Virus record (IMG/VR): IMGVR_UViG_3300027977_000006
Direction: 5' to 3' (one strand)
DNA: 64,000 nt
Origin: a virus
Taxonomy: Duplodnaviria > Heunggongvirae > Uroviricota > Caudoviricetes
Shown: positions 36,210-54,327 of the stretch, one piece after another
How the letters are laid out: every line of letters starts with the position of its first letter
Numbering within the stretch: position 1 is the stretch's first letter
Translations under genes and position numbers: made by a program
Notes under the pieces: generated by a model
Told to the model about the DNA's origin: nothing
What the model saw: only the letters and a program-made list of their open reading frames with translations
Databases searched by the model: none

Positions 36210-36660
36210 CAGCTCGGCTGTGGTCGTGTACACAAATGTGTTCACATTACAAAAGGCAAATGCCCAGACCGCAATATAGCAATCTGGGCACCGCTTTGTT
36301 TACATAATGAGTGTGAGCTCCGTTGATTACAAGGTTGCTCATTTCCTTGCAACCAACGGCACTCATTTTTGGCTCAATGGGATGCCTTCCCACCGACTTA
36401 CGCCTCTTGGCAGAGAACCGATTGGTTGAGATAGCGTGGAATCACTGCTACGGTACACAGAGGTTCTCGTCAGAGAGTTACGCATGGAAGTTGCCATCCC
36501 TAACCAAATGCACAAGTCAATGGCTAAAAACGGAACGGCATCGCTGGGGAACATAAGTTCCCCTACAAACAGAGGCTGTATCTTGAACGGAGATTAACAT
36601 GAGAGAGGTGTATTAAACCGACCTACTCAAACCAATATTTTAAAGAACTTCTATTAACTT
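36210..36660 (-). ncRNA. Candidate structured ncRNA 1 (~450 nt): GC-rich (~50%), ORF-free, promoter-driven
   Basis: Promoter at 36667-36703. Long hairpins that need G-U pairs only in the minus-strand transcript: CCGUUGGUUGCAAGG/CCUUGUAAUCAACGG (15 bp), GCCCAGAUUGC/GCGGUCUGGGC (11 bp), GGGGAAC-UUAU-GUUCCCC. Confidence 0.4.
36227..36246. repeat. Palindrome TGTACACAAATGTGTTCACA (copy with 1 mismatch)
   Basis: Shared with 50343-50360 and 50632-50651. Confidence 0.6.
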
Positions 36661-36666
36661 CGATAG

Positions 36667-36703
36667 TACAAAGGTACGAAAACTTTTTGAAACTACCAAA
36701 TCT
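36667..36703 (-). promoter_or_regulatory. Early-type promoter (TACAAAGGTACGAAAACTTTTTGAAACTACCAAAT)
   Basis: Motif match; no ORF downstream. Confidence 0.5.
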
Positions 36704-36719
36704 TTTTGAAACTTTTTTT

Positions 36720-36880
36720 TACCTCATAGAGAGTGGCTACTCCCTCGCATATCATTGGGCATTATTGCTATCGCCAGTGAATCTCTATAAAGTAATTAAA
36801 TCATACCGATAAAGTCTGCTCACGGAATATCGGCAAGTCGTGGCACTTTATGATTTAATGTTTCTCTCTCAATGAACGTA
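36720..36880 (-). ncRNA. Candidate structured ncRNA 2 (~160 nt), ORF-free and promoter-driven
   Basis: Promoter at 36880-36918; only short stop-interrupted frames. Confidence 0.3.
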
Positions 36881-36918
36881 CTGCAAAGGTAGTAAAACTT
36901 TTTGAAACCACCAAATAT
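36880..36918 (-). promoter_or_regulatory. Early-type promoter (CTGCAAAGGTAGTAAAACTTTTTGAAACCACCAAAT)
   Basis: Motif match. Confidence 0.5.
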
Positions 36919-36923
36919 ATTTC

Positions 36924-37199
36924 TTACAATTTGTAAGATTTTTTTATCTGACTTAATTCAAAATCATCAGAAGCATATAAACTAATTTGTTCTACTTTAT
37001 TTGTAACTGGATGAAATCTATGTCTGAATGAATGAATCACCTTATTACCTTGTTTAAAGCTTCCCATATACTGCCAAGCTTCACCTTCATATAAAGCAAC
37101 GTCTGGCTGTTCCAGACCTTCATTTAATGGATGACTGGCCAACCAGTTCCACATATAATCCCATTCAGGACTACCTATTTCTATAATAACAAATTCCAT
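36924..37199 (-). CDS. hypothetical protein (91 aa)
   Basis: ORF. Confidence 0.5.
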   Translation of the reverse strand: MEFVIIEIGSPEWDYMWNWLASHPLNEGLEQPDVALYEGEAWQYMGSFKQGNKVIHSFRHRFHPVTNKVEQISLYASDDFELSQIKKSYKL

Positions 37200-37236
37200 G
37201 CTACAAATGTAACATGGAATCTATCAAAAGTCAAGC

Positions 37237-37410
37237 TAAACTCAACCAAGATTATCAGGTTGACACTGCATTATCATTACGGAATAAACCTTACCGCTAT
37301 CTGTGGTTATCCACATACTACCGCAATTTTCTTCCGTAGATACTACCTCACCATCTACCTCACCCTTTACATAGGCTGCAATTTCTGCATTAATTGTTTC
37401 TTCTTTGCTC
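37237..37410 (-). CDS. small hypothetical protein (57 aa, MSKEETINAEIAAYVKGEVDG…)
   Basis: ORF below the track cutoff, filling the gap in an apparent three-gene operon. Confidence 0.3.
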
Positions 37411-37427
37411 ATTTTATATAAATTTAT

Positions 37428-37667
37428 TTAATCTTCTTCAATTACTTCCAACCCTTCGCTTTCCCCTGCAATATCAATTGCCAACCAAATTTGTTCCATT
37501 GTTGCATCATTTTCCAAAGCATCTTTTAAAATACTCTGCGCAGTTTCATCATCACATTTGAATTTGCCTTTTACATCGTCAACGTGCCATAAGTTATCCA
37601 CAAAGTAACCATTATCCCTTAGCAACTGCTTTGCTTTTTCGATTTCTTTTTGTTGTTCTATTGTCAT
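37428..37667 (-). CDS. hypothetical protein (79 aa; start MTIEQQKEIEK)
   Basis: Promoter at 37685-37720. Confidence 0.5.
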   Translation of the reverse strand: MTIEQQKEIEKAKQLLRDNGYFVDNLWHVDDVKGKFKCDDETAQSILKDALENDATMEQIWLAIDIAGESEGLEVIEED

Positions 37668-37700
37668 ATTATTTGATTTTGATACTGCAAAGATAAACAA

Positions 37701-37928
37701 TTATTTTGGAATATCCAAATATAAATGGTCAAAACCTTTAATTTTATTTGTTGGACTTCCGTTTCTACGCCACATACCTGATATATAACCCTCATTCAAA
37801 GTAAGCTTTCCCATATAAGGACACTTCACCAACCCAACAATAATGTTGTCCAAAGGCAACCAACGAAGGTCTTTTACTTCATGATTCCCAATAGTATGGG
37901 TTATAGTATTAAGATATTCTTGTTTCAT
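37701..37928 (-). CDS. hypothetical protein (75 aa; start MKQEYLN)
   Basis: Promoter at 37938-37975. Confidence 0.5.
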   Translation of the reverse strand: MKQEYLNTITHTIGNHEVKDLRWLPLDNIIVGLVKCPYMGKLTLNEGYISGMWRRNGSPTNKIKGFDHLYLDIPK

Positions 37929-38025
37929 ATTTAATTTTTGACAAAGATAACACAATTTTTTCGTTTTTCCAAAAACCAACGAAAGTTTTTTACTTTTTTA
38001 TACATATTTATAATAAACAAAAGAT

Positions 38026-38685
38026 ATGACTGAGGAACAAAAAGCAAAAAAGAAAATCACCGATAAAGCTTATCGAGATAGAAATAAAGCTAAAATTAAA
38101 GAACGTGATAAACTTTATTATGAAAATAATAAAGAAAAAATCAAATTAGCGAATAAAGAATACGCTGAAAAAAACAAAGAAACAAAAAAAGCATACAAAG
38201 AAAAATGGGTTAGTGAAAATAAAGACCGAATTAAGAAATACTATGAAGATAATAAAACTGAATTAAAAAGTAAACGTAAAACTTACATAGAAAGAAATAG
38301 AGATAAAATTCGTGAATATGATAGAAATTACCGTAAACGTAAAATGGTTGAAGACCCATTGTATAGGTTAAAAGCCCATCTGAGAATTTTAATAAATAAA
38401 TCATTAAGAGCCAAACAATACGTTAAAAACTCAAAAACTATTGAAATTTTAGGTTGTTCGTATGAAGAGTTTAAACAACACATTGAATCATTATGGCAAC
38501 CATGGATGAATTGGGGTAATAAAGGTTTATACAATGGCCAACCAAATTATGGTTGGGATATTGACCATATTACTCCATTATCAACTGGTATGACAAAAGA
38601 AGAATTAATAAAGTTAAATCATTATACTAACTTACAACCATTATGTAGTTATATTAATAGGGATGTAAAAAGAGATAATATTTGA
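38026..38685 (+). CDS. Free-standing HNH endonuclease, paralog 1 (basic N-terminal K/E/N-rich repeats plus a C-terminal ILGCSYEEFKQHIES…NYGWDIDHITP…LNHYTNLQPLCSYINR HNH core)
   Basis: The D-H…N…N-L-Q-P-L-C HNH motif; paralogous to 39842..40492 and 41499..42194; oriented against the surrounding genes. Confidence 0.6.
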   Translation: MTEEQKAKKKITDKAYRDRNKAKIKERDKLYYENNKEKIKLANKEYAEKNKETKKAYKEKWVSENKDRIKKYYEDNKTELKSKRKTYIERNRDKIREYDRNYRKRKMVEDPLYRLKAHLRILINKSLRAKQYVKNSKTIEILGCSYEEFKQHIESLWQPWMNWGNKGLYNGQPNYGWDIDHITPLSTGMTKEELIKLNHYTNLQPLCSYINRDVKRDNI

Positions 38686-38818
38686 TTCCTGTGGCTGTAT
38701 GTGTTATAGTATTAAGATATTCTTGTTTCATAATGCAAAGATAAAAAAACGGTTTGAGTAATTTGTTTTAATTCCATACTGCAAAGATAAGAAAGTTTTT
38801 ATATTTTCCAAATTTAAC

Positions 38819-39256
38819 TTAATTAATTATGCTTATTACATCAATATAACCATCTTCCATTTTAGTTGGGTCAACTATGTGGAAAGCAAAATAATCTCCT
38901 TCGTCAACCAATAATAGGTATTTTCCGTTATCTAAAGTAAGTTTTTCCCATTCCCAGCAATCAAAATACTTTGAGAACGCTTTGGGTGTATCATACATAA
39001 ACCAACCATCACAAAAATCATCATCGATGAAATCATGGTTACAAATGGCAATTTCAATATCCCCATTTTTCTCAATATCCCACTCCCAACCGTAATCGTC
39101 AAAAGCACATATTTCGGTGTCTTGGTTTTCTTTAAAAAACTTTTTAATGAAGTTGGTTAGTTTTTTATTTTTAGTGCAGGTTTTCAACAATGCTATTTCT
39201 ACTTGTTCATTTGTAGTATCAAGTGGCAAGTCGAGTAAATACAATTCTTTTTTCAT
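38819..39256 (-). CDS. hypothetical protein (145 aa)
   Basis: ORF. Confidence 0.5.
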   Translation of the reverse strand: MKKELYLLDLPLDTTNEQVEIALLKTCTKNKKLTNFIKKFFKENQDTEICAFDDYGWEWDIEKNGDIEIAICNHDFIDDDFCDGWFMYDTPKAFSKYFDCWEWEKLTLDNGKYLLLVDEGDYFAFHIVDPTKMEDGYIDVISIIN

Positions 39257-39294
39257 AATATTATTTTTTTAATGCAAAGGTTCTAAACATTTTT

Positions 39295-39567
39295 CTATTT
39301 TCCAACCCTAACGTAACTTATAAAACTATCAGTTAATGTATCTAATTCTTGGTTATTTACGCCATCCATAAAATCAGGTAATTCATAAATCATTATATCA
39401 CCTAAACTGCCATCTACTTCCTCTTTAGCCAAAAATTTACCTATTTCAGCTGTACCCTCAAACTTCATATTTTCAATAAGCTCACAAACTTTTCTTGAAT
39501 TATGGTAATCAACAGGCACTATAACAACAAATATTTTTTCCATGTTCTTTTGTTTTTGTTTATGCAA
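39295..39567 (-). CDS. hypothetical protein (90 aa)
   Basis: ORF. Confidence 0.5.
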   Translation of the reverse strand: MHKQKQKNMEKIFVVIVPVDYHNSRKVCELIENMKFEGTAEIGKFLAKEEVDGSLGDIMIYELPDFMDGVNNQELDTLTDSFISYVRVGK

Positions 39568-39613
39568 AGATAAGAAAAAGAAATGACACTACCAAATAGT
39601 AGCGTCACTTTTT

Positions 39614-39805
39614 TTATTCCGCAAAATTTGGTTTAATTTCTGTAAACCCTTGTGGTTTTTTGCTTTCAACACTTATTACATCTCTAGCCCAAGTACCAAC
39701 ATAATTGTTCGAACCCCTAAAGTCACCACCGCCCCTGCCGTTTAAAAAAATCGCCTCCACTTCGTTCTTTTTTACTTTTCTTAGATATTTATTATTATAA
39801 TGCAA
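39614..39805 (-). CDS. Truncated paralog (63 aa) of the C-terminal ~45 aa of 40507..41043 (NGRGGGDFRGSNNYVGTWARDVISVESKKPQGFTEIKPNF)
   Basis: Clear amino-acid similarity to …GNLRGGGDYTSKNGAEFVGTWARDLISVSSKKPNGYKEIKPNF; separated from the full-length copy by an HNH gene. Confidence 0.5.
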   Translation of the reverse strand: MHYNNKYLRKVKKNEVEAIFLNGRGGGDFRGSNNYVGTWARDVISVESKKPQGFTEIKPNFAE

Positions 39806-39841
39806 ATATAAGATTAAATTATGAACTAAACAAATTTATTT

Positions 39842-40492
39842 ATGAAAACCGATAGAAAAATTATTCAACAACGATATAGAGAAAAAAATCGTGAAATACT
39901 TAGAGAAAAAAATAGACTATATAAAGAAAAAAATGCTGAGTCAATTAAACTAAAAAATAAACTCTATAAAGAACAACATAGTGAAACAATATCTGAATAT
40001 AATCATAAAACAAAAGACCAAAAAAAACTAACAGATAAATTGTACCGTGAAAAAAATGCTGAATCAATTAAACAGAAAAAAAGAGAGTATTACGAAGCTA
40101 ATAAAACTAAAATTAGAGAATATAATCGAAACTATAAAATTAATCGTATGAAAGACGACCCTTTATTTTTTCTTAAACGAAAAATTCATAATATTATTTA
40201 TAAAGCTATAAAACATAATTATACCAAAAATAAATCAACATTACAAATACTCGGATGTTCTTATGAAGAATTTAAACAGCATCTCGAAAGTCAGTTTGAA
40301 TCGTGGATGAATTGGGAAAATTATGGCTTATATAAAAAAGGAGAATTAAATTATGGTTGGGATATTGACCATATAATCCCAACCAGTTCTGCTAAAACAG
40401 AAGATAAATTAATTCAATTAAACCATTATACTAATTTAAAACCACTTTGTTCTTATACTAATAGATATATAAAAAAGGATAACCTTATATAA
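39842..40492 (+). CDS. Free-standing HNH endonuclease, paralog 2
   Basis: Same architecture: …ILGCSYEEFKQHLESQFESWMNW…NYGWDIDHIIP…LNHYTNLKPLCSYTNR. Confidence 0.6.
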   Translation: MKTDRKIIQQRYREKNREILREKNRLYKEKNAESIKLKNKLYKEQHSETISEYNHKTKDQKKLTDKLYREKNAESIKQKKREYYEANKTKIREYNRNYKINRMKDDPLFFLKRKIHNIIYKAIKHNYTKNKSTLQILGCSYEEFKQHLESQFESWMNWENYGLYKKGELNYGWDIDHIIPTSSAKTEDKLIQLNHYTNLKPLCSYTNRYIKKDNLI

Positions 40493-40506
40493 GGTTATCC
40501 AATTTA

Positions 40507-41043
40507 TTAGTCTTCATTAAAATTAGGTTTTATTTCTTTGTAACCATTAGGTTTCTTTGAACTAACAGAAATTAAATCTCTTGCCCATGTACCGACAAAT
40601 TCAGCACCATTTTTAGAAGTATAATCTCCACCCCCCCTTAAATTTCCTTCGCAGGTAAGCAAAGGTAGAGGGTGTATCTTTGTTCCTTTCCAAGTCGCTA
40701 TTTCGGGTACGTTAAACTTATCAACAAATTCTTTTTTGCTGTGGTTTACAATATAACGTGTTTCAGTTACACTTACCCTTTCTGTTGGGTTGGCTTTTTC
40801 AGTATCCTTGCAACGCTTATACAAATTTGTTTTTCTGCCTTTGCACTCATCGGCATAATCACCAGCCCATACAACCCTTTGAGGGTTATTTTTAATAAGA
40901 CTTTCAAAAGAACTTACAAAATGATTTCCAATATAGGAATGTTCCATAAGTTTAAGCCCATTATCGTATTCGTGTGAATACATCCAAGACTTAACACTTT
41001 TTTTGTTTTCTGCAAGTAAAATTGGTTTAAAATACTGACCCAT
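40507..41043 (-). CDS. hypothetical protein (178 aa), the full-length relative of 39614..39805
   Basis: ORF. Confidence 0.5.
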   Translation of the reverse strand: MGQYFKPILLAENKKSVKSWMYSHEYDNGLKLMEHSYIGNHFVSSFESLIKNNPQRVVWAGDYADECKGRKTNLYKRCKDTEKANPTERVSVTETRYIVNHSKKEFVDKFNVPEIATWKGTKIHPLPLLTCEGNLRGGGDYTSKNGAEFVGTWARDLISVSSKKPNGYKEIKPNFNED

Positions 41044-41117
41044 AATGTTAATGTTTTTAGTTAATAAAATATTTACAATGCAAAGATAAACAATTATTTT
41101 GAATTTCCAAACTTTTT

Positions 41118-41411
41118 TTAAAAAATATTTTGCAGCTTTACTTTTGATTCAATCCACTTCAAAATGGTATCAGCATAATAAGAAGTAGTCAAATCAGTTA
41201 AAAAGAAATACATCTTACGATACGCTTCACTATCATCAGCAGTTATCGTACCCCTCGTAAATTCTTTTGCATTGCTTTGGTTACTCGATTTGCGATACCC
41301 TGTTGAAGTATCCCAATCTTTCCCAATGATAGCAATTACCTTTCCAGTAATTTCAACGGTGATTACACCGCCCCTACATTGTTCTCCAATTTTAAAAGTC
41401 TTTTTTGCCAT
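41118..41411 (-). CDS. hypothetical protein (97 aa)
   Basis: ORF; promoter at 41438-41475. Confidence 0.5.
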   Translation of the reverse strand: MAKKTFKIGEQCRGGVITVEITGKVIAIIGKDWDTSTGYRKSSNQSNAKEFTRGTITADDSEAYRKMYFFLTDLTTSYYADTILKWIESKVKLQNIF

Positions 41412-41498
41412 AATTTTATTTTTTATTGATTAATAATAATGCAAAGATAAGAATAATTTTCAACTTTCCAAAAATTTGTGATATTTATTTTAAAATAG

Positions 41499-42194
41499 GT
41501 GAGTATGCAAAAAAAATGTCAAAAATGTAGTGAATTAAAAGATATTAATTCATTTAGTAAACAATCAACAAATAAAGATGGTTATAAAAGCACATGCAAA
41601 ATTTGTGTTGCTGAATATGGTAAAAAATATAGATTAAATAATATTGAAAAAGAAAAAGATAGAAGTAATTCTTATTATAAAAACAATAAAGATAAACGCT
41701 CCGATTATTTTAATTCAAAAAAAGAAGAAAAAAAAGAATACGCAAAAAAATATCGTAAAGAGAATAAAGTAAAAATTAGCGAACAACGCAAAAAAAAATA
41801 TCTAGAAAATAAAGAAATTATTAGCAAAAAAAATTATGAATACCATAAACGAAAAATGGAAACCGACCCTTTATTTAAATTAAAAAAACAACTCAAAGGT
41901 TTAATCAGGGATAGTTTAAGAAATCAAAATTTAAAAAAATCAGATAAAACAATAGATATATTGGGCTGCACTATACAAGAATTTAAACAACATATTGAAT
42001 CACAATTTGAGTCATGGATGACTTGGGAAAATAAAGGGTTATATAATGGTGAATTAAACTATGGGTGGGATATCGACCATATCATTCCAACTTCTAGCGG
42101 TTCAACTTATGAAGAAATTATTAAACTTAACCATTACAGCAATTTACAACCTTTATGTGGTTATATTAATAGGCATGTAAAAAGAAATAATTAA
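41499..42194 (+). CDS. Free-standing HNH endonuclease, paralog 3, with an extra N-terminal zinc ribbon (CQKCSELK…CKICVAEY)
   Basis: CxxC…CxxC plus repeats plus the conserved HNH C-terminus. Confidence 0.6.
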   Translation: MSMQKKCQKCSELKDINSFSKQSTNKDGYKSTCKICVAEYGKKYRLNNIEKEKDRSNSYYKNNKDKRSDYFNSKKEEKKEYAKKYRKENKVKISEQRKKKYLENKEIISKKNYEYHKRKMETDPLFKLKKQLKGLIRDSLRNQNLKKSDKTIDILGCTIQEFKQHIESQFESWMTWENKGLYNGELNYGWDIDHIIPTSSGSTYEEIIKLNHYSNLQPLCGYINRHVKRNN

Positions 42195-42310
42195 CTTGAC
42201 AATACTCGCCAATTTTCCATGTTTTAGTTACTTTTGCCATTTGTTTAATTATTTTGTTACCGCAAATATAAAAAAAAGGTTTGGAATTACCAAACCTTTT
42301 CTGACTTTTT

Positions 42311-43126
42311 TTATTCAGCTATTTCTTTATTTTTCAATAACCTATCAATTTCAATAATCCTCTCATATTGCTCATCAGCCAATGCAAGTTCTTTTAATTT
42401 ATTTAAAACAACAACTGGATATTCAGCAACAAGGTATTGTTCCTCATGAGCAATTTCAACAAGACTTTCGGCAAATTCGCCTAATTCCTCATCTAATTCA
42501 TCGCATAAGTAATTCTCCAAATAATACTCTAGGTCACCATTTATATCCATTGCCATTCGCAGAGCCTCTTTGCTACCACCATTAGGTATATAAATATAAG
42601 TTATTACCCCATTTTCTATATGGTATTCACCAACATTATACCCAAAATCCTCATCAGCATATTGAATACAGAATTTAGCATTTGGGTATTTTATAGACAA
42701 CAACTGTATTGCCATTTGAGAGGTACTCCACGCTGTACAGAATACAATCTCATTGTCGCAAATACTTTGGTCATAAGCATTCCATTTAGTACCCCAATTT
42801 TGAATACTCCAGTCATACCAATTATCAGCACCAAACTTGTCTTGGTATTCAGCAGATATTTCTTTTGTTATTCCCCTGCTAACGCCAAAATTCTTTTCTA
42901 AGTCAGTCAATTCATTTTTGGCAATCCTTTCCTCTTGCTTATCATAATCCTCTTGGCTTATAATACTAGTAGGACTGGTAATTGACCTTAATTCATTTGG
43001 CATTGGTGCGAATGTATTAAAGTCAATAAATTGGTCATCTTGACTTCCTTTGATTTCCGATAATACTTTCGCTACTTCCGTTTCTTCACCAATAATGGTT
43101 AATCTGTTTGTTACGTGATTAGGCAT
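42311..43126 (-). CDS. hypothetical protein (271 aa), possibly DUF1281-like (N-terminal MPNHVTNRLTIIG)
   Basis: Weak N-terminal motif recall. Confidence 0.4.
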   Translation of the reverse strand: MPNHVTNRLTIIGEETEVAKVLSEIKGSQDDQFIDFNTFAPMPNELRSITSPTSIISQEDYDKQEERIAKNELTDLEKNFGVSRGITKEISAEYQDKFGADNWYDWSIQNWGTKWNAYDQSICDNEIVFCTAWSTSQMAIQLLSIKYPNAKFCIQYADEDFGYNVGEYHIENGVITYIYIPNGGSKEALRMAMDINGDLEYYLENYLCDELDEELGEFAESLVEIAHEEQYLVAEYPVVVLNKLKELALADEQYERIIEIDRLLKNKEIAE

Positions 43127-43180
43127 ATACTTTATCTTTTGTTTACTGCAAAGATAAAAAAAAGGTTTGGTAATTCCAAA

Positions 43181-43471
43181 TTATTCTTCAAAAAAATCTT
43201 CTATGGGCACTTTACATTCTTCAAAAGCCATATAACCCATTACACCTACAGCATTCCATAAGTTCTCATCAGAATCCAAATAAGAATAATAATCCTCTTC
43301 AATGAATTCAGTTTCCAACATACTATTAACAAATTCACCATTTATCATCCACCTATCTTTCATGAAGATTCGTATGTCTTCAATAGTACCTGTAAGTACT
43401 TTACTTCCATTGTCGTCCAAGTCTATCAACTGATAAACTGTAACTCCGTTTCGCATCTTTTCCATCTTCAT
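43181..43471 (-). CDS. hypothetical protein (96 aa)
   Basis: ORF. Confidence 0.5.
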   Translation of the reverse strand: MKMEKMRNGVTVYQLIDLDDNGSKVLTGTIEDIRIFMKDRWMINGEFVNSMLETEFIEEDYYSYLDSDENLWNAVGVMGYMAFEECKVPIEDFFEE

Positions 43472-43495
43472 TTTTATTTTAATTTATTTAAAACC

Positions 43496-43759
43496 CTACA
43501 TCCACCCCTCTTTAACTTTGACTGGTTTACCATTACTTAAACTCCAAACTTCGTAGTACTCACCCCATTCACCTCTACGGCTTCTTGATACATAAACCAT
43601 TTCATCATGACTTGCATTAAGCATAGCTTTCATTGCACTTATTAGTTTATCATAAGTAGGATATACATTGGTAATCTCCCTGCTTTTACGGAATCCATTA
43701 CGATAATCTCGTATGCTTTCGTCTGTGGCAAAACTTGCCTGTGGTTTAAATTTTGGCAT
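43496..43759 (-). CDS. hypothetical protein (87 aa)
   Basis: ORF; promoter at 43776-43800. Confidence 0.5.
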   Translation of the reverse strand: MPKFKPQASFATDESIRDYRNGFRKSREITNVYPTYDKLISAMKAMLNASHDEMVYVSRSRRGEWGEYYEVWSLSNGKPVKVKEGWM

Positions 43760-43792
43760 ATGTCTTTAATTTTATGTTGCAAAGATAGTAAA

Positions 43793-44350
43793 TTATTTCT
43801 TTTCTTGCAAAATTATTTTTTTCAAATGTTCAACATAATTTGGAGCTTCCGCATAACTCGCATGAAGGTATTGAAAATAATCAGCTTCCGTTTTTATGTC
43901 AGATAGATATTGCGCTTGATAAAAAGCATAATCAACAACACTCTCTTTCCAATTATCATAATAAGCGTGTCCATTCTCCTCACCCTTATTGGTAGTTGGT
44001 CGTCTTGTGGCAACCTTCATTCCAAATAAATTATGATTGGTTTTAAAGATTTCACTCTTAAAATTACCACTCTCCAACCTCGCTTGTGCATACACAATAT
44101 GTGGGAACTTTATGTTCAATTCCAATATATATGCTTTCAATTTTTGTGCGCTAAATTCATTGAGCTTATTGGATTCGCTTAAAATGATTGCTTTTGTTTC
44201 CTCACTTATGTACTTCACTTGATTTACCCTGTAAACAAGCAAACAAACAATAATTCCACTCGTAACAAACGCTAACCCAATTATCAATAGCATAGCTTTC
44301 TTTGTTACATTCTCGTAAACCAAATTTTCTTTGTTGTAAAAATAAATCAT
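43793..44350 (-). CDS. Membrane-anchored peptidoglycan hydrolase, glucosaminidase (GH73/FlgJ-like) domain
   Basis: N-terminal transmembrane helix (MLLIIGLAFVTSGIIVCLLVY) plus AQARLESGNFKSEIFKTNHNLFGMK; promoter at 44360-44400. Confidence 0.55.
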   Translation of the reverse strand: MIYFYNKENLVYENVTKKAMLLIIGLAFVTSGIIVCLLVYRVNQVKYISEETKAIILSESNKLNEFSAQKLKAYILELNIKFPHIVYAQARLESGNFKSEIFKTNHNLFGMKVATRRPTTNKGEENGHAYYDNWKESVVDYAFYQAQYLSDIKTEADYFQYLHASYAEAPNYVEHLKKIILQEKK

Positions 44351-44401
44351 ACTATTTTGTTTAGATTGCAAATATAAGAATAATTTTTCAACCAACCAAA
44401 T

Positions 44402-54236: not shown

Positions 54237-54255
54237 AACTTTTATTTTTGTTTAG

Positions 54256-54327
54256 TAGTCAGGACAAGATTCGAACTTGTATTCTATTACTTCCGTAATC
54301 GCCATTACCATTATCGACCACCTGACT
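54256..54327 (-). tRNA. tRNA-like element (72 nt): 7-bp acceptor stem AGTCAGG/CCTGACT, discriminator A, T-arm ACAAG-TTCGAAT-CTTGT. The anticodon and D region is non-canonical (GTAAT-GGCG-ATTAC-GGAA-GTAAT alternative hairpins)
   Basis: Hand folding; driven by the promoter-like element at 54454-54490. The overlapping plus ORF 54183..54452 is implausible. Confidence 0.4.

Follow-up and report, generated by a model that had tools for sequence, protein, structure and literature searches.

Three free-standing HNH endonuclease genes of a tailed phage probably move as homing cassettes that bring replacement gene ends

Here, we analysed a 64,000-nucleotide (nt) stretch of a tailed phage genome (Caudoviricetes; IMG/VR record IMGVR_UViG_3300027977_000006; hereafter, the window), in which three rightward open reading frames (ORFs), HNH1, HNH2 and HNH3, are embedded in a leftward array of small genes. 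We propose, with a probability of about 0.8, that the three belong separately to a single family of free-standing HNH homing endonucleases, each forming a self-contained cassette that moves by homing. Alignment with related contigs reveals the boundaries of the cassettes, the empty sites, the hybrid genes, recurrence at one site and states of decay. A first-pass annotation of the window had already described three paralogous rightward genes at this location. We recovered all three, HNH3 likely starting at ATG 41505 rather than GTG 41499 (gene callers' choice on other contigs), and they are 44-52% identical to each other over their full length (in-window tblastn, E = 5e-47 to 2e-63), with a common N-terminal K/E/N-rich region of ~15-amino-acid (aa) repeats and a conserved C-terminal motif (NYGWDIDHI...LNHYTNLQPLC...N). 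The same tblastn search found no fourth copy in the 64-kb window. The earlier Zn-ribbon/HNH label stands for the HNH part on fold and family evidence, whereas a CxxC...CxxC zinc ribbon occurs in HNH3 only, at its N-terminus (residues 7-37). Each gene is a separate ORF on the strand opposite to its neighbours. A search of the window against Rfam returned no intron and no other RNA family, ruling out such elements as an explanation for the loci. HNH2 is closer to over 30 database proteins (53-83% identity) than it is to HNH1 or HNH3 (~50%), which points to three separate arrivals and not to one element multiplying in place; the suggestion that copies are spreading from one to another within this gene cluster was therefore not upheld.

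A blastn comparison of positions 36500-44400 with 50,697 phage records gave just three short weak matches, and because no cultured phage is close, synteny was taken from metagenomic contigs. The window's phage occurs in many metagenome assemblies with all three HNH genes in place (L001-L009, L135-L142); SRR8441445, SRR8441488, ERZ27250415 and JGI 3300028114 are among the samples containing it. Using the 178-aa protein encoded next to HNH2, we retrieved 4,949 homologues, typically 172-190 aa long. Six contigs (L010-L015) carry 87-89% identical homologues and are collinear with the window, at blastn segment identities from 73% to 98% (94.7-98.1% for the flanks in L012). HNH1 and HNH2 are missing from L010, HNH2 from L011-L015, and HNH3 from L012 and its relatives. 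The empty sites in these contigs are clean and the junctions are nucleotide-exact. Mobility, as suspected in the first-pass annotation, is thus supported by synteny with relatives lacking the HNH genes, which defines the insertion sites and shows the genes to be polymorphic in presence between the window and L010-L015.

Cassette 2, which contains HNH2, is a single-point insertion in the resident 178-aa gene, with zero resident sequence lost. Read in the direction of that gene, the window has 0 mismatches to L010, L011 and L012 over 40789-40670, 3-4 in 40669-40640, and 10-16 per 30 nt (33-53%) beyond 40639, with the switch point at 40643/40642. The upstream resident part of the gene ends ...TGCGAAGGAAA (40643), and resident sequence restarts at 39743 with (AAA)CGGCAGGGGCGGTGGTGAC, from where 39743-38748 is 93.1% identical to L010 and collinear with it on into the downstream genes. 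AAA stands at both ends of the cassette, so that the junction is ambiguous by 3 nt. The inserted segment provides the 178-aa gene with a foreign 3' end and further includes a hairpin, HNH2 and the 98-nt 5' flank of HNH2. The C-terminus derived from it reads N-L-R-G-G-G-D in place of N-G-R-G-G-G-D, and the hairpin is probably part of the cassette and predicted to act as a two-way terminator.

The former end of the 178-aa gene lies beyond the cassette. HNH2 is placed exactly between the 178-aa gene and a 63-aa ORF (39614-39805, leftward), whose residues 22-63 match residues 134-177 of the 178-aa protein at 66% identity (E = 4e-18), confirming a duplication that had been noticed from the letters of the window. 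Compared with the HNH-less allele (L010/P0013), 42/42 residues of this remnant are identical, with 6 synonymous and 0 non-synonymous differences; it is therefore the phage's own former gene end, for whose decay there has not yet been time. The 63-aa ORF as such is not independently conserved, being absent from HNH-less genomes and mostly deleted in L016. The cassette-borne 5' flank is kept beside the HNH gene in both L016 and L017. It contains an outward Bacteroidota-type -7 box, TATATTTG (39803-39810), directed toward the downstream host genes, as well as the relic of an older target half-site, GAAGTGGAGGCGATTTTTTT (39744-39763). Because this relic is homologous to AAAGGTGGTGGCGATTTTTTTT in L180, it is what an earlier insertion has left, in worn form, of the G-G-G-D-F codons.

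The cassettes of HNH3 and HNH1 bring a promoter and a gene start. Besides 8 nt and HNH3, cassette 3 supplies the 97-aa gene with a new promoter, TTATCTTTGCA (~41440-41450), and with 13 replacement codons, MAKKTFKIGEQCR, standing where the resident allele has MAKVTKTWKIGEYAK. Its junctions are GGCGAGTA/TTGTCAAG at 42203/42202 and TGTAGG/GGCGGTGTAATC at 41373/41372. Identity between L012 and the window extends as far as GGCGAGTA (42203), corresponding to the promoter and the 12 opening codons of the 99-aa gene of L012, and the match restarts at GGCGGTGTAATC (41372). In the direction of its host gene, cassette 1 comprises an orphan promoter with 14 foreign codons of a 75-aa gene, HNH1, a relic, and a new promoter with 17 replacement codons; the junctions are ...ACTCAAACCGT/TTTTTTATC at 38749/38748 and ...AATCATGAA/GTAAAAGACC at 37878/37877. 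Here, the match to L010 runs to ACTCAAACCGT (38749), covering the promoter and ~10 codons of the L010 72-aa gene, and restarts at GTAAAAGACC (37877). The orphan inside cassette 1 matches the N-terminus and upstream region of 75-aa homologues in L194 and L020 and forms a 36-nt, 97% direct repeat with 37894-37929, the live gene start (repeat family D12); it is the fossil of an earlier host. The 22-nt relic is 75-aa-gene sequence from just past the insertion point, and HNH1 has two junctions of different age, 6 nt apart. The duplication footprint, originally described for the middle gene and attributed to homing insertion, is hence present at all three HNH genes (Table 1).

Table 1 Features of the three HNH loci and of related contigs (window positions unless a contig is named).
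Feature	Position	Strand	Description
HNH1	38026..38685	+	219 aa; free-standing HNH-type endonuclease gene; antisense to neighbours; without zinc ribbon
HNH2	39842..40492	+	216 aa; free-standing HNH-type endonuclease gene; convergent with 178-aa gene; without zinc ribbon
HNH3	41505..42194	+	229 aa from ATG 41505 (231 aa from GTG 41499); free-standing HNH-type endonuclease gene
Cassette 1	37878..38747	-	absent from L010, where ~13 nt stand in for ~870 nt
75-aa host gene	37701..37928	-	hybrid; codons 1-17 and promoter from cassette; codon 18 onward resident, 96.7% to L010
Relic AAGTAAAAAACTTTCGTTGGTT	37974..37995	-	22 nt beside HNH1 5' flank; 91% repeat of 37858-37879 (family D18)
Second orphan, a promoter with 14 codons (MKQEYLNTITHTATG) from another 75-aa allele	38688..38744	-	ends 2 nt from HNH1 stop
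Orphaned resident promoter TTATCTTTGCAGT and first ~10 codons of 75-aa gene (MELKQITQTV...)	38748..38790	-	near-identical to L010 2191-2233
Cassette 2	39744..40642	-	899 bp; inserted at ...TGCGAAGGAAA^CGGCAGGGGCGGTGGTGAC of resident 178-aa gene
178-aa host gene	40507..41043	-	hybrid; phrog_3156; codons 1-133 resident, last ~45 (40507-40642) from cassette
Hairpin	40477..40500	.	perfect, GGATAACCTTAT/ATAAGGTTATCC; between convergent 178-aa gene and HNH2, overlaps last HNH2 codons
HNH2 5' flank	39744..39841	-	cassette-borne; encodes first 21 residues of 63-aa ORF
Remnant of resident 178-aa 3' end	39614..39743	-	42 codons and stop; C-terminal two-thirds of 63-aa ORF
Cassette 3	41373..42202	-	830 bp; absent from L012
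97-aa host gene	41118..41411	-	hybrid; codons 1-13 from cassette, rest resident, 94.7% to L012
Orphaned resident promoter TTATATTTGCGG and first 12 codons MAKVTKTWKIGEY of 97-aa gene	42203..42271	-	identical to L012, ~98 nt to junction
Empty-site sequences	L012 97-aa gene; L010 75-aa gene		GGCGAGTA^CGCCAAAGGCGGTG; ACTCAAACCGT^TGAGGGTTATCC
HNH 3'-end relics	L022 6563-6616; L022 7083-7136; L019 4978-5052		18-25 codons from HNH2-like and HNH1-like genes, rest deleted

The HNH2 target recurs in other lineages. In L017 and L018, an HNH gene 81% identical to HNH2 occupies the same codon position of a 178-aa homologue that is only 63% identical, and these contigs hold a remnant of their own (NGKGGGDY...). 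L180 carries an HNH gene 62.5% identical to HNH2, and its remnant begins AAC GGC AGA GGT GGT GGC GAT. The window, L017/L018 and L180 share their junction, before AAC GGN ARR GG of the N-G-R-G-G-G-D codons, which constitutes recurrent insertion at one conserved target for HNH2; HNH3 is a single instance. A 118-aa ORF lies between the HNH gene and the 178-aa-homologue remnant in L180 (1280-1636) and is apparently cargo inside that cassette. Intermediate and late states are also found: L016 has the cassette with most of the remnant deleted, and L022 keeps the NLRGGGS... C-terminus and the same hairpin, yet only the last 18 HNH codons, together with a second relic from an HNH1-like gene. L019 is likewise reduced to an HNH relic. 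These relics represent the loss phase of a homing-endonuclease life cycle. In an 80-locus IMG/VR sample of 178-aa homologues, no HNH gene adjoined the usual N-G-x-G-G-G-D alleles, and the NLRGGG-type C-termini at the loci examined were always linked to an HNH gene or HNH relic. Since the departure of replacement alleles from empty ones falls right on the junction codons (NG to NL; EYAK to EQCR), the replacement end is what a self-protecting allele would look like, and it would presumably resist cutting.

The 178-aa family itself (phrog_3156; ~4,900 homologues, on phage-like contigs of up to 360 kb) has the conserved motifs WxGDYAD, HPLPLLTCEGNGRGGGD and GTWARD, and no Pfam or NCBIfam model matched it. 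Upstream of the gene, in the gap 41044-41117, the window is missing a 249-aa gene that in relatives sits between the 99-aa gene and the 178-aa homologue (L010 27-776, L012 8215-8964, L016 1735-2484) and has a weak ParB-like nuclease match (E = 0.025). Logan contigs of the window's phage stop exactly in this intergenic gap, which suggests that variants with and without the 249-aa gene co-exist in those samples. Downstream, close relatives differ by a local rearrangement: the 145-aa and 82/90-aa genes stand in one order in the window and L010 and in the swapped order in L012 (9643-10406, corresponding to window 38780-39578) and L014.

We identified the three proteins as HNH nucleases from fold and family evidence, not from their Pfam scores: matches to Pfam HNH (PF01844) reach 14.3-15.8 bits, under the gathering cutoff of 21.4, and HNH3 has an additional weak Stc1-like match. 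PHROG 1035 ('endonuclease VII', phrog_1035) matches HNH3 (E = 1.8e-18) and HNH1 (E = 6.6e-5); NCBIfam and a profile search of PDB sequences gave zero matches. At E <= 1e-3, the family numbers 3,854 homologues. Alignment of 60 sequences shows columns D174, D176, H177, H195, N198, N207, R208 and K211 to be invariant, of which H177 (HNH2 numbering) is the presumed catalytic histidine; the D-x-D-H, N and N columns are invariant in 60/60 homologues, and Pfam HNH is the only family that recurs among these sequences (10/60 at E <= 0.01; best E = 0.002). An AlphaFold2 model of HNH2 (mean predicted local distance difference test score, pLDDT, of 87) places seven helices across residues 5-125 and a strand-strand-helix unit at 173-177, 199-203 and 204-211, the predicted beta-beta-alpha fold with His and conserved Asn of an HNH / His-Me finger. 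The nuclease motif of HNH2 is accordingly C-terminal (residues ~165-215), and the repeats are N-terminal. A Foldseek search of this model against PDB returned nothing significant, with I-HmuI ranked top at E = 1.5. Against predicted viral structures in BFVD, matches of E = 1e-10 to 1e-4 (25-42% identity) were obtained, including an 'HNHc domain containing protein' of uncultured tailed phages, Mimivirus L246, 'HNH endonuclease' of Hyperionvirus and Marseillevirus, an 'intron encoded endonuclease' of Bodo saltans virus and a 'Stc1 domain' protein. Because these best matches lie in both groups, the family, covered by PHROG 1035, reaches across phages and giant viruses. To our knowledge, none of these giant-virus and uncultured-phage HNH proteins has a characterised target or described mobility, and their names are automatic annotations. 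HNH1, HNH2 and HNH3 are putative endonucleases, predicted to cleave their targets. A packaging-associated, terminase-partner role was rejected, as the neighbouring genes were scanned without a terminase or portal match and the HNH genes are absent from close relatives.

Promoter-like repeats are a general feature of this region. The pattern TTTGG...N(~19)...TTATCTTTGCA precedes nearly every small leftward gene in window 37600-42300 (e.g., 42256-42271, 41431-41450, ~41081-41088, ~39565-39572, 38772-38790, 37933-37950) and yields many short blastn matches between intergenic regions. We take these repeats to fit the Bacteroidota promoter consensus (-33 TTTG, -7 TAnnTTTG), which suggests that the host of the phage belongs to the Bacteroidota, probably as a freshwater member.

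The layout is not confined to the window's host genes. HNH-seeded IMG/VR and JGI samples provided 77 non-redundant family members, 10 of which have flanks joined by a strong direct duplication (tblastx E < 1e-6), as opposed to 1/61 control intervals displaced within the same loci. Five loci (L161, L192, L162, L177, L143) repeat the arrangement with host genes that are unrelated: directly next to the 3' end of an antisense HNH gene stands a complete gene, whose C-terminus is repeated by a short ORF beyond the 5' end of the HNH gene.

These observations could be explained by the following course of events. The nuclease would cut the conserved coding sequence of a co-infecting, cassette-free phage, and the break would be repaired by copying the cassette-bearing genome, the copied segment containing the antisense nuclease gene and a replacement end for the interrupted host gene. 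HNH2 would supply 45 C-terminal codons and the hairpin to the 178-aa gene, and HNH1 and HNH3 would supply a promoter and 13-17 N-terminal codons to the 75-aa and 97-aa genes. The host gene would be kept intact, and because its copy of the target would be altered (e.g., N-G-R to N-L-R at the junction codons), re-cutting would be expected to be resisted. The displaced resident end would be left beyond the cassette as a dead fragment; successive rounds in different hosts would pile up such fragments, and both fragments and nuclease genes would later erode. The first duplication at each site may have arisen by repair with one-sided homology and an illegitimate join on the other side. Once formed, the remnant would act as a second homology arm, with which the whole unit could home precisely.

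Several points weigh against homing as the explanation. That the targets are cut, and where, that the replacement alleles are immune and how the break is repaired are steps that we infer. A motif scan found no TAnnTTTG box upstream of HNH1, HNH2 or HNH3 on the + strand. IMG/VR scans gave no relatives of HNH1 or HNH3 above 57% identity at their sites in other phages; likewise, the one scan of metagenomes gave at most 57% identity for HNH1 and HNH3 among the matches listed, and searching for the exact HNH3 protein led only to the same phage, with the gene in an unchanged context. No HNH-less relatives of L017 or L180 were found, and the independence of their insertions is argued from divergence. 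The empty sites of HNH2 and HNH3 have A^CGsCArrGGCGGTG in common at zero offset from the junction, and within the window the derived target motif occurs at the remnant itself only. However, the plain match count between the two sites is not significant (13/20, p = 0.13), a composition-weighted (AT-rich) score that reaches p ~2e-4 is post hoc, and site 1 resembles neither of them. We treat this shared motif as a lead because it was noticed after the fact.

The cassettes could instead be passive cargo, moved by general or illegitimate phage recombination, with the HNH proteins acting elsewhere, such as in phage exclusion, counter-defence or DNA processing. The indirect case for cleavage and the lack of a recognisable promoter upstream of the HNH genes agree with this, the conserved promoter repeats that flank almost all small genes here could support recombination, and the L180 cassette has its 118-aa cargo ORF. 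Nonetheless, we consider passive transport unlikely. All junctions lie within coding sequence, 10-17 codons from a start or 45 codons from a stop, and outside the promoter repeats, by which shuffling of these repeats is ruled out as their source. Moreover, one nucleotide position of the 178-aa gene is filled in three diverged lineages by diverged HNH genes, the replacement alleles depart from the empty ones precisely at the junction codons, and flank duplications are enriched beside family members relative to control intervals.

Two further scenarios concern the age and origin of the duplicated end. If the insertion were ancient, ancestral to this phage group, and HNH-less relatives had precisely lost it when the duplicated gene ends recombined, deletion could have been supported by the direct repeats on either side of the cassettes, and partial deletions do occur in L016 and L022. 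This is quite improbable: an old pseudogene would not be expected to be free of non-synonymous changes, stops and frameshifts relative to a functional HNH-less allele, as the remnant is, and deletion between copies of 66% aa identity would yield a chimeric C-terminus, whereas L010 has the pure NG type and no HNH gene adjoins NG-type 178-aa homologues in the IMG/VR sample. The 63-aa ORF might otherwise be the residue of a decayed second copy of the 178-aa gene, the HNH gene having landed between tandem paralogues, and a weak resemblance between the 21 opening residues of the ORF and the 178-aa protein at residues ~100-133 would fit. We rejected this origin, which we regard as hardly credible, on the grounds that HNH-less relatives have a single copy whose 3' end is the counterpart of the remnant, collinear with the downstream genes, and that the first 21 codons belong to the cassette, travelling with the HNH gene in L016 and L017.

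With homing as the favoured explanation, the cassettes can be compared with known mobile elements. The closest precedent, fungal mitochondrial mobile endonuclease ORFs (mORFs) with a foreign gene C-terminus, has been described in Glomus atp6, atp9, cox2 and nad3 (PMC3630166), which cites atp6 of Allomyces macrogynus as the first reported case. As in mORFs, an endonuclease ORF enters the 3' part of a conserved gene, here the 178-aa gene, with a foreign in-frame C-terminus, and the native end stays downstream, unused. In both systems, a close relative has a gene that almost equals the native copy, and the copies within one genome are far more diverged (66% aa identity here); for Glomus atp6, the native duplicate shares 91% nucleotide and 100% amino-acid identity with the close relative, and the in-genome copies share 63.5% nucleotide identity (PMC3630166). 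The 97-aa and 75-aa genes show a mirror-image, 5'-end version of this design. Unlike mORFs, the cassettes reside in a phage and not in an organelle, the nuclease is of HNH type instead of LAGLIDADG or GIY-YIG, and it is antisense, whereas mORFs are co-oriented or fused in frame with the host gene; in addition, it is a promoter and 5' end, not a 3' end, that cassettes 1 and 3 replace, and fossils of earlier hosts are nested inside. Because the nuclease is HNH-type and antisense, in a phage, the cassettes are an analogue of mORFs and not a member.

The first-pass annotation had assigned the genes to the T4 seg/mob type, and this applies to their lifestyle, which is free-standing and intron-less, but not to family membership. 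T4 mobA-E are free-standing HNH homing endonuclease genes (review PMC2988022; MobE in PMC2790892). Like them, the nuclease genes studied here lack introns, sit between phage genes or at gene ends and are present in some relatives but not in others; both kinds are believed to spread when double-strand breaks are repaired, co-converting flanking markers, and in both, differences in target sequence presumably protect the carrier genome. In Mob proteins, the HNH domain is N-terminal and the DNA-binding part C-terminal (PMC10448857), and in our proteins the order is reversed, with helical repeats (with or without a zinc ribbon) preceding a C-terminal nuclease. The Pfam scan of the three proteins gave no match to HNH_3 (I-HmuI-like) at E <= 0.1, which together with the domain order rules out the Mob family, and the Seg family is ruled out by the lack of GIY-YIG among Pfam and PHROG matches. 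A text search of the T4 review (PMC2988022) found no mention of a duplicated gene-end footprint. That review summarises a one-sided and illegitimate repair of the double-strand break during T4 td intron homing (Parker, Belisle and Belfort 1999), in which, as we suggest for the cassettes, homology acts on one side of the break and a microhomology join on the other; AAA is the microhomology at the HNH2 junctions. In contrast to td, a laboratory construct with an intron-encoded GIY-YIG enzyme, the cassettes are natural products, which after their formation seem to spread using the remnant as a homology arm. Homing-endonuclease islands at recombination boundaries occur in Vibrio phage ICP1 and other phages (PMC10448857), and our loci resemble them in the clustering of several homing endonuclease genes, which stand where exchanged segments begin or end and whose DNA-binding regions are repetitive. 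In ICP1, the repetitive arrays are zinc-finger (CapR-like) domains of T5orf172 nucleases, and HNH-family genes are also encoded (PMC10448857). Gene-end replacement with an orphaned remnant was not found in a text search of PMC10448857, nor did the open-access literature searched, with partial coverage, yield a phage description of the gene-end cassette design.

The targets of phage homing endonucleases usually need experiments to be identified; here, three probable sites can be read from sequence to within a few nucleotides, along with natural alleles expected to resist cutting and a history of earlier hosts, for an uncharacterised HNH family whose members, in phages and giant viruses, number thousands. 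With a spare gene end, or a spare promoter and gene start, a selfish nuclease can enter conserved coding sequence without destroying the gene and without an intron or intein, and the same solution in fungal mitochondria would be a case of convergence. Such cassettes create hybrid genes, orphan promoters and small spurious ORFs (e.g., the 63-aa ORF), and may explain some mosaic boundaries inside phage genes. Two broader ideas follow. Cassettes carrying gene ends may be a general, overlooked route by which phage gene ends are swapped between lineages, which is the likelier of the two. The other, which we regard as doubtful, is that the N-terminal array of ~15-residue helices (5-8 units; consensus roughly Y-x-E-x-N-K-E-x-I-K-x-x-x-K-x) is a modular DNA-reading domain whose variable positions set target specificity. 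If true, hundreds of natural repeat arrays paired with their inferred targets could give a recognition code and a programmable nuclease scaffold; the family leaves nucleotide-exact footprints (empty site, immune allele and remnant).

Two observations elsewhere in the window are recorded here. Positions 36210-36920 (leftward strand) form ~710 nt without a sizeable coding-strand ORF, with a GC content of 0.39 as compared to ~0.30 nearby and a predicted RNA fold of z = -4.66 relative to shuffles; the segment has no Rfam match and is conserved in the HNH-less contig L011. It contains two near-identical promoter-like repeats TTTGGTnGTTTCAAAAAGTTTTnnTACCTTTG, which suggests that it holds two non-coding RNAs. 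At 54255-54327 (leftward strand), ARAGORN reports a tRNA-like gene, 'tRNA-???', with an odd two-base anticodon (ga).

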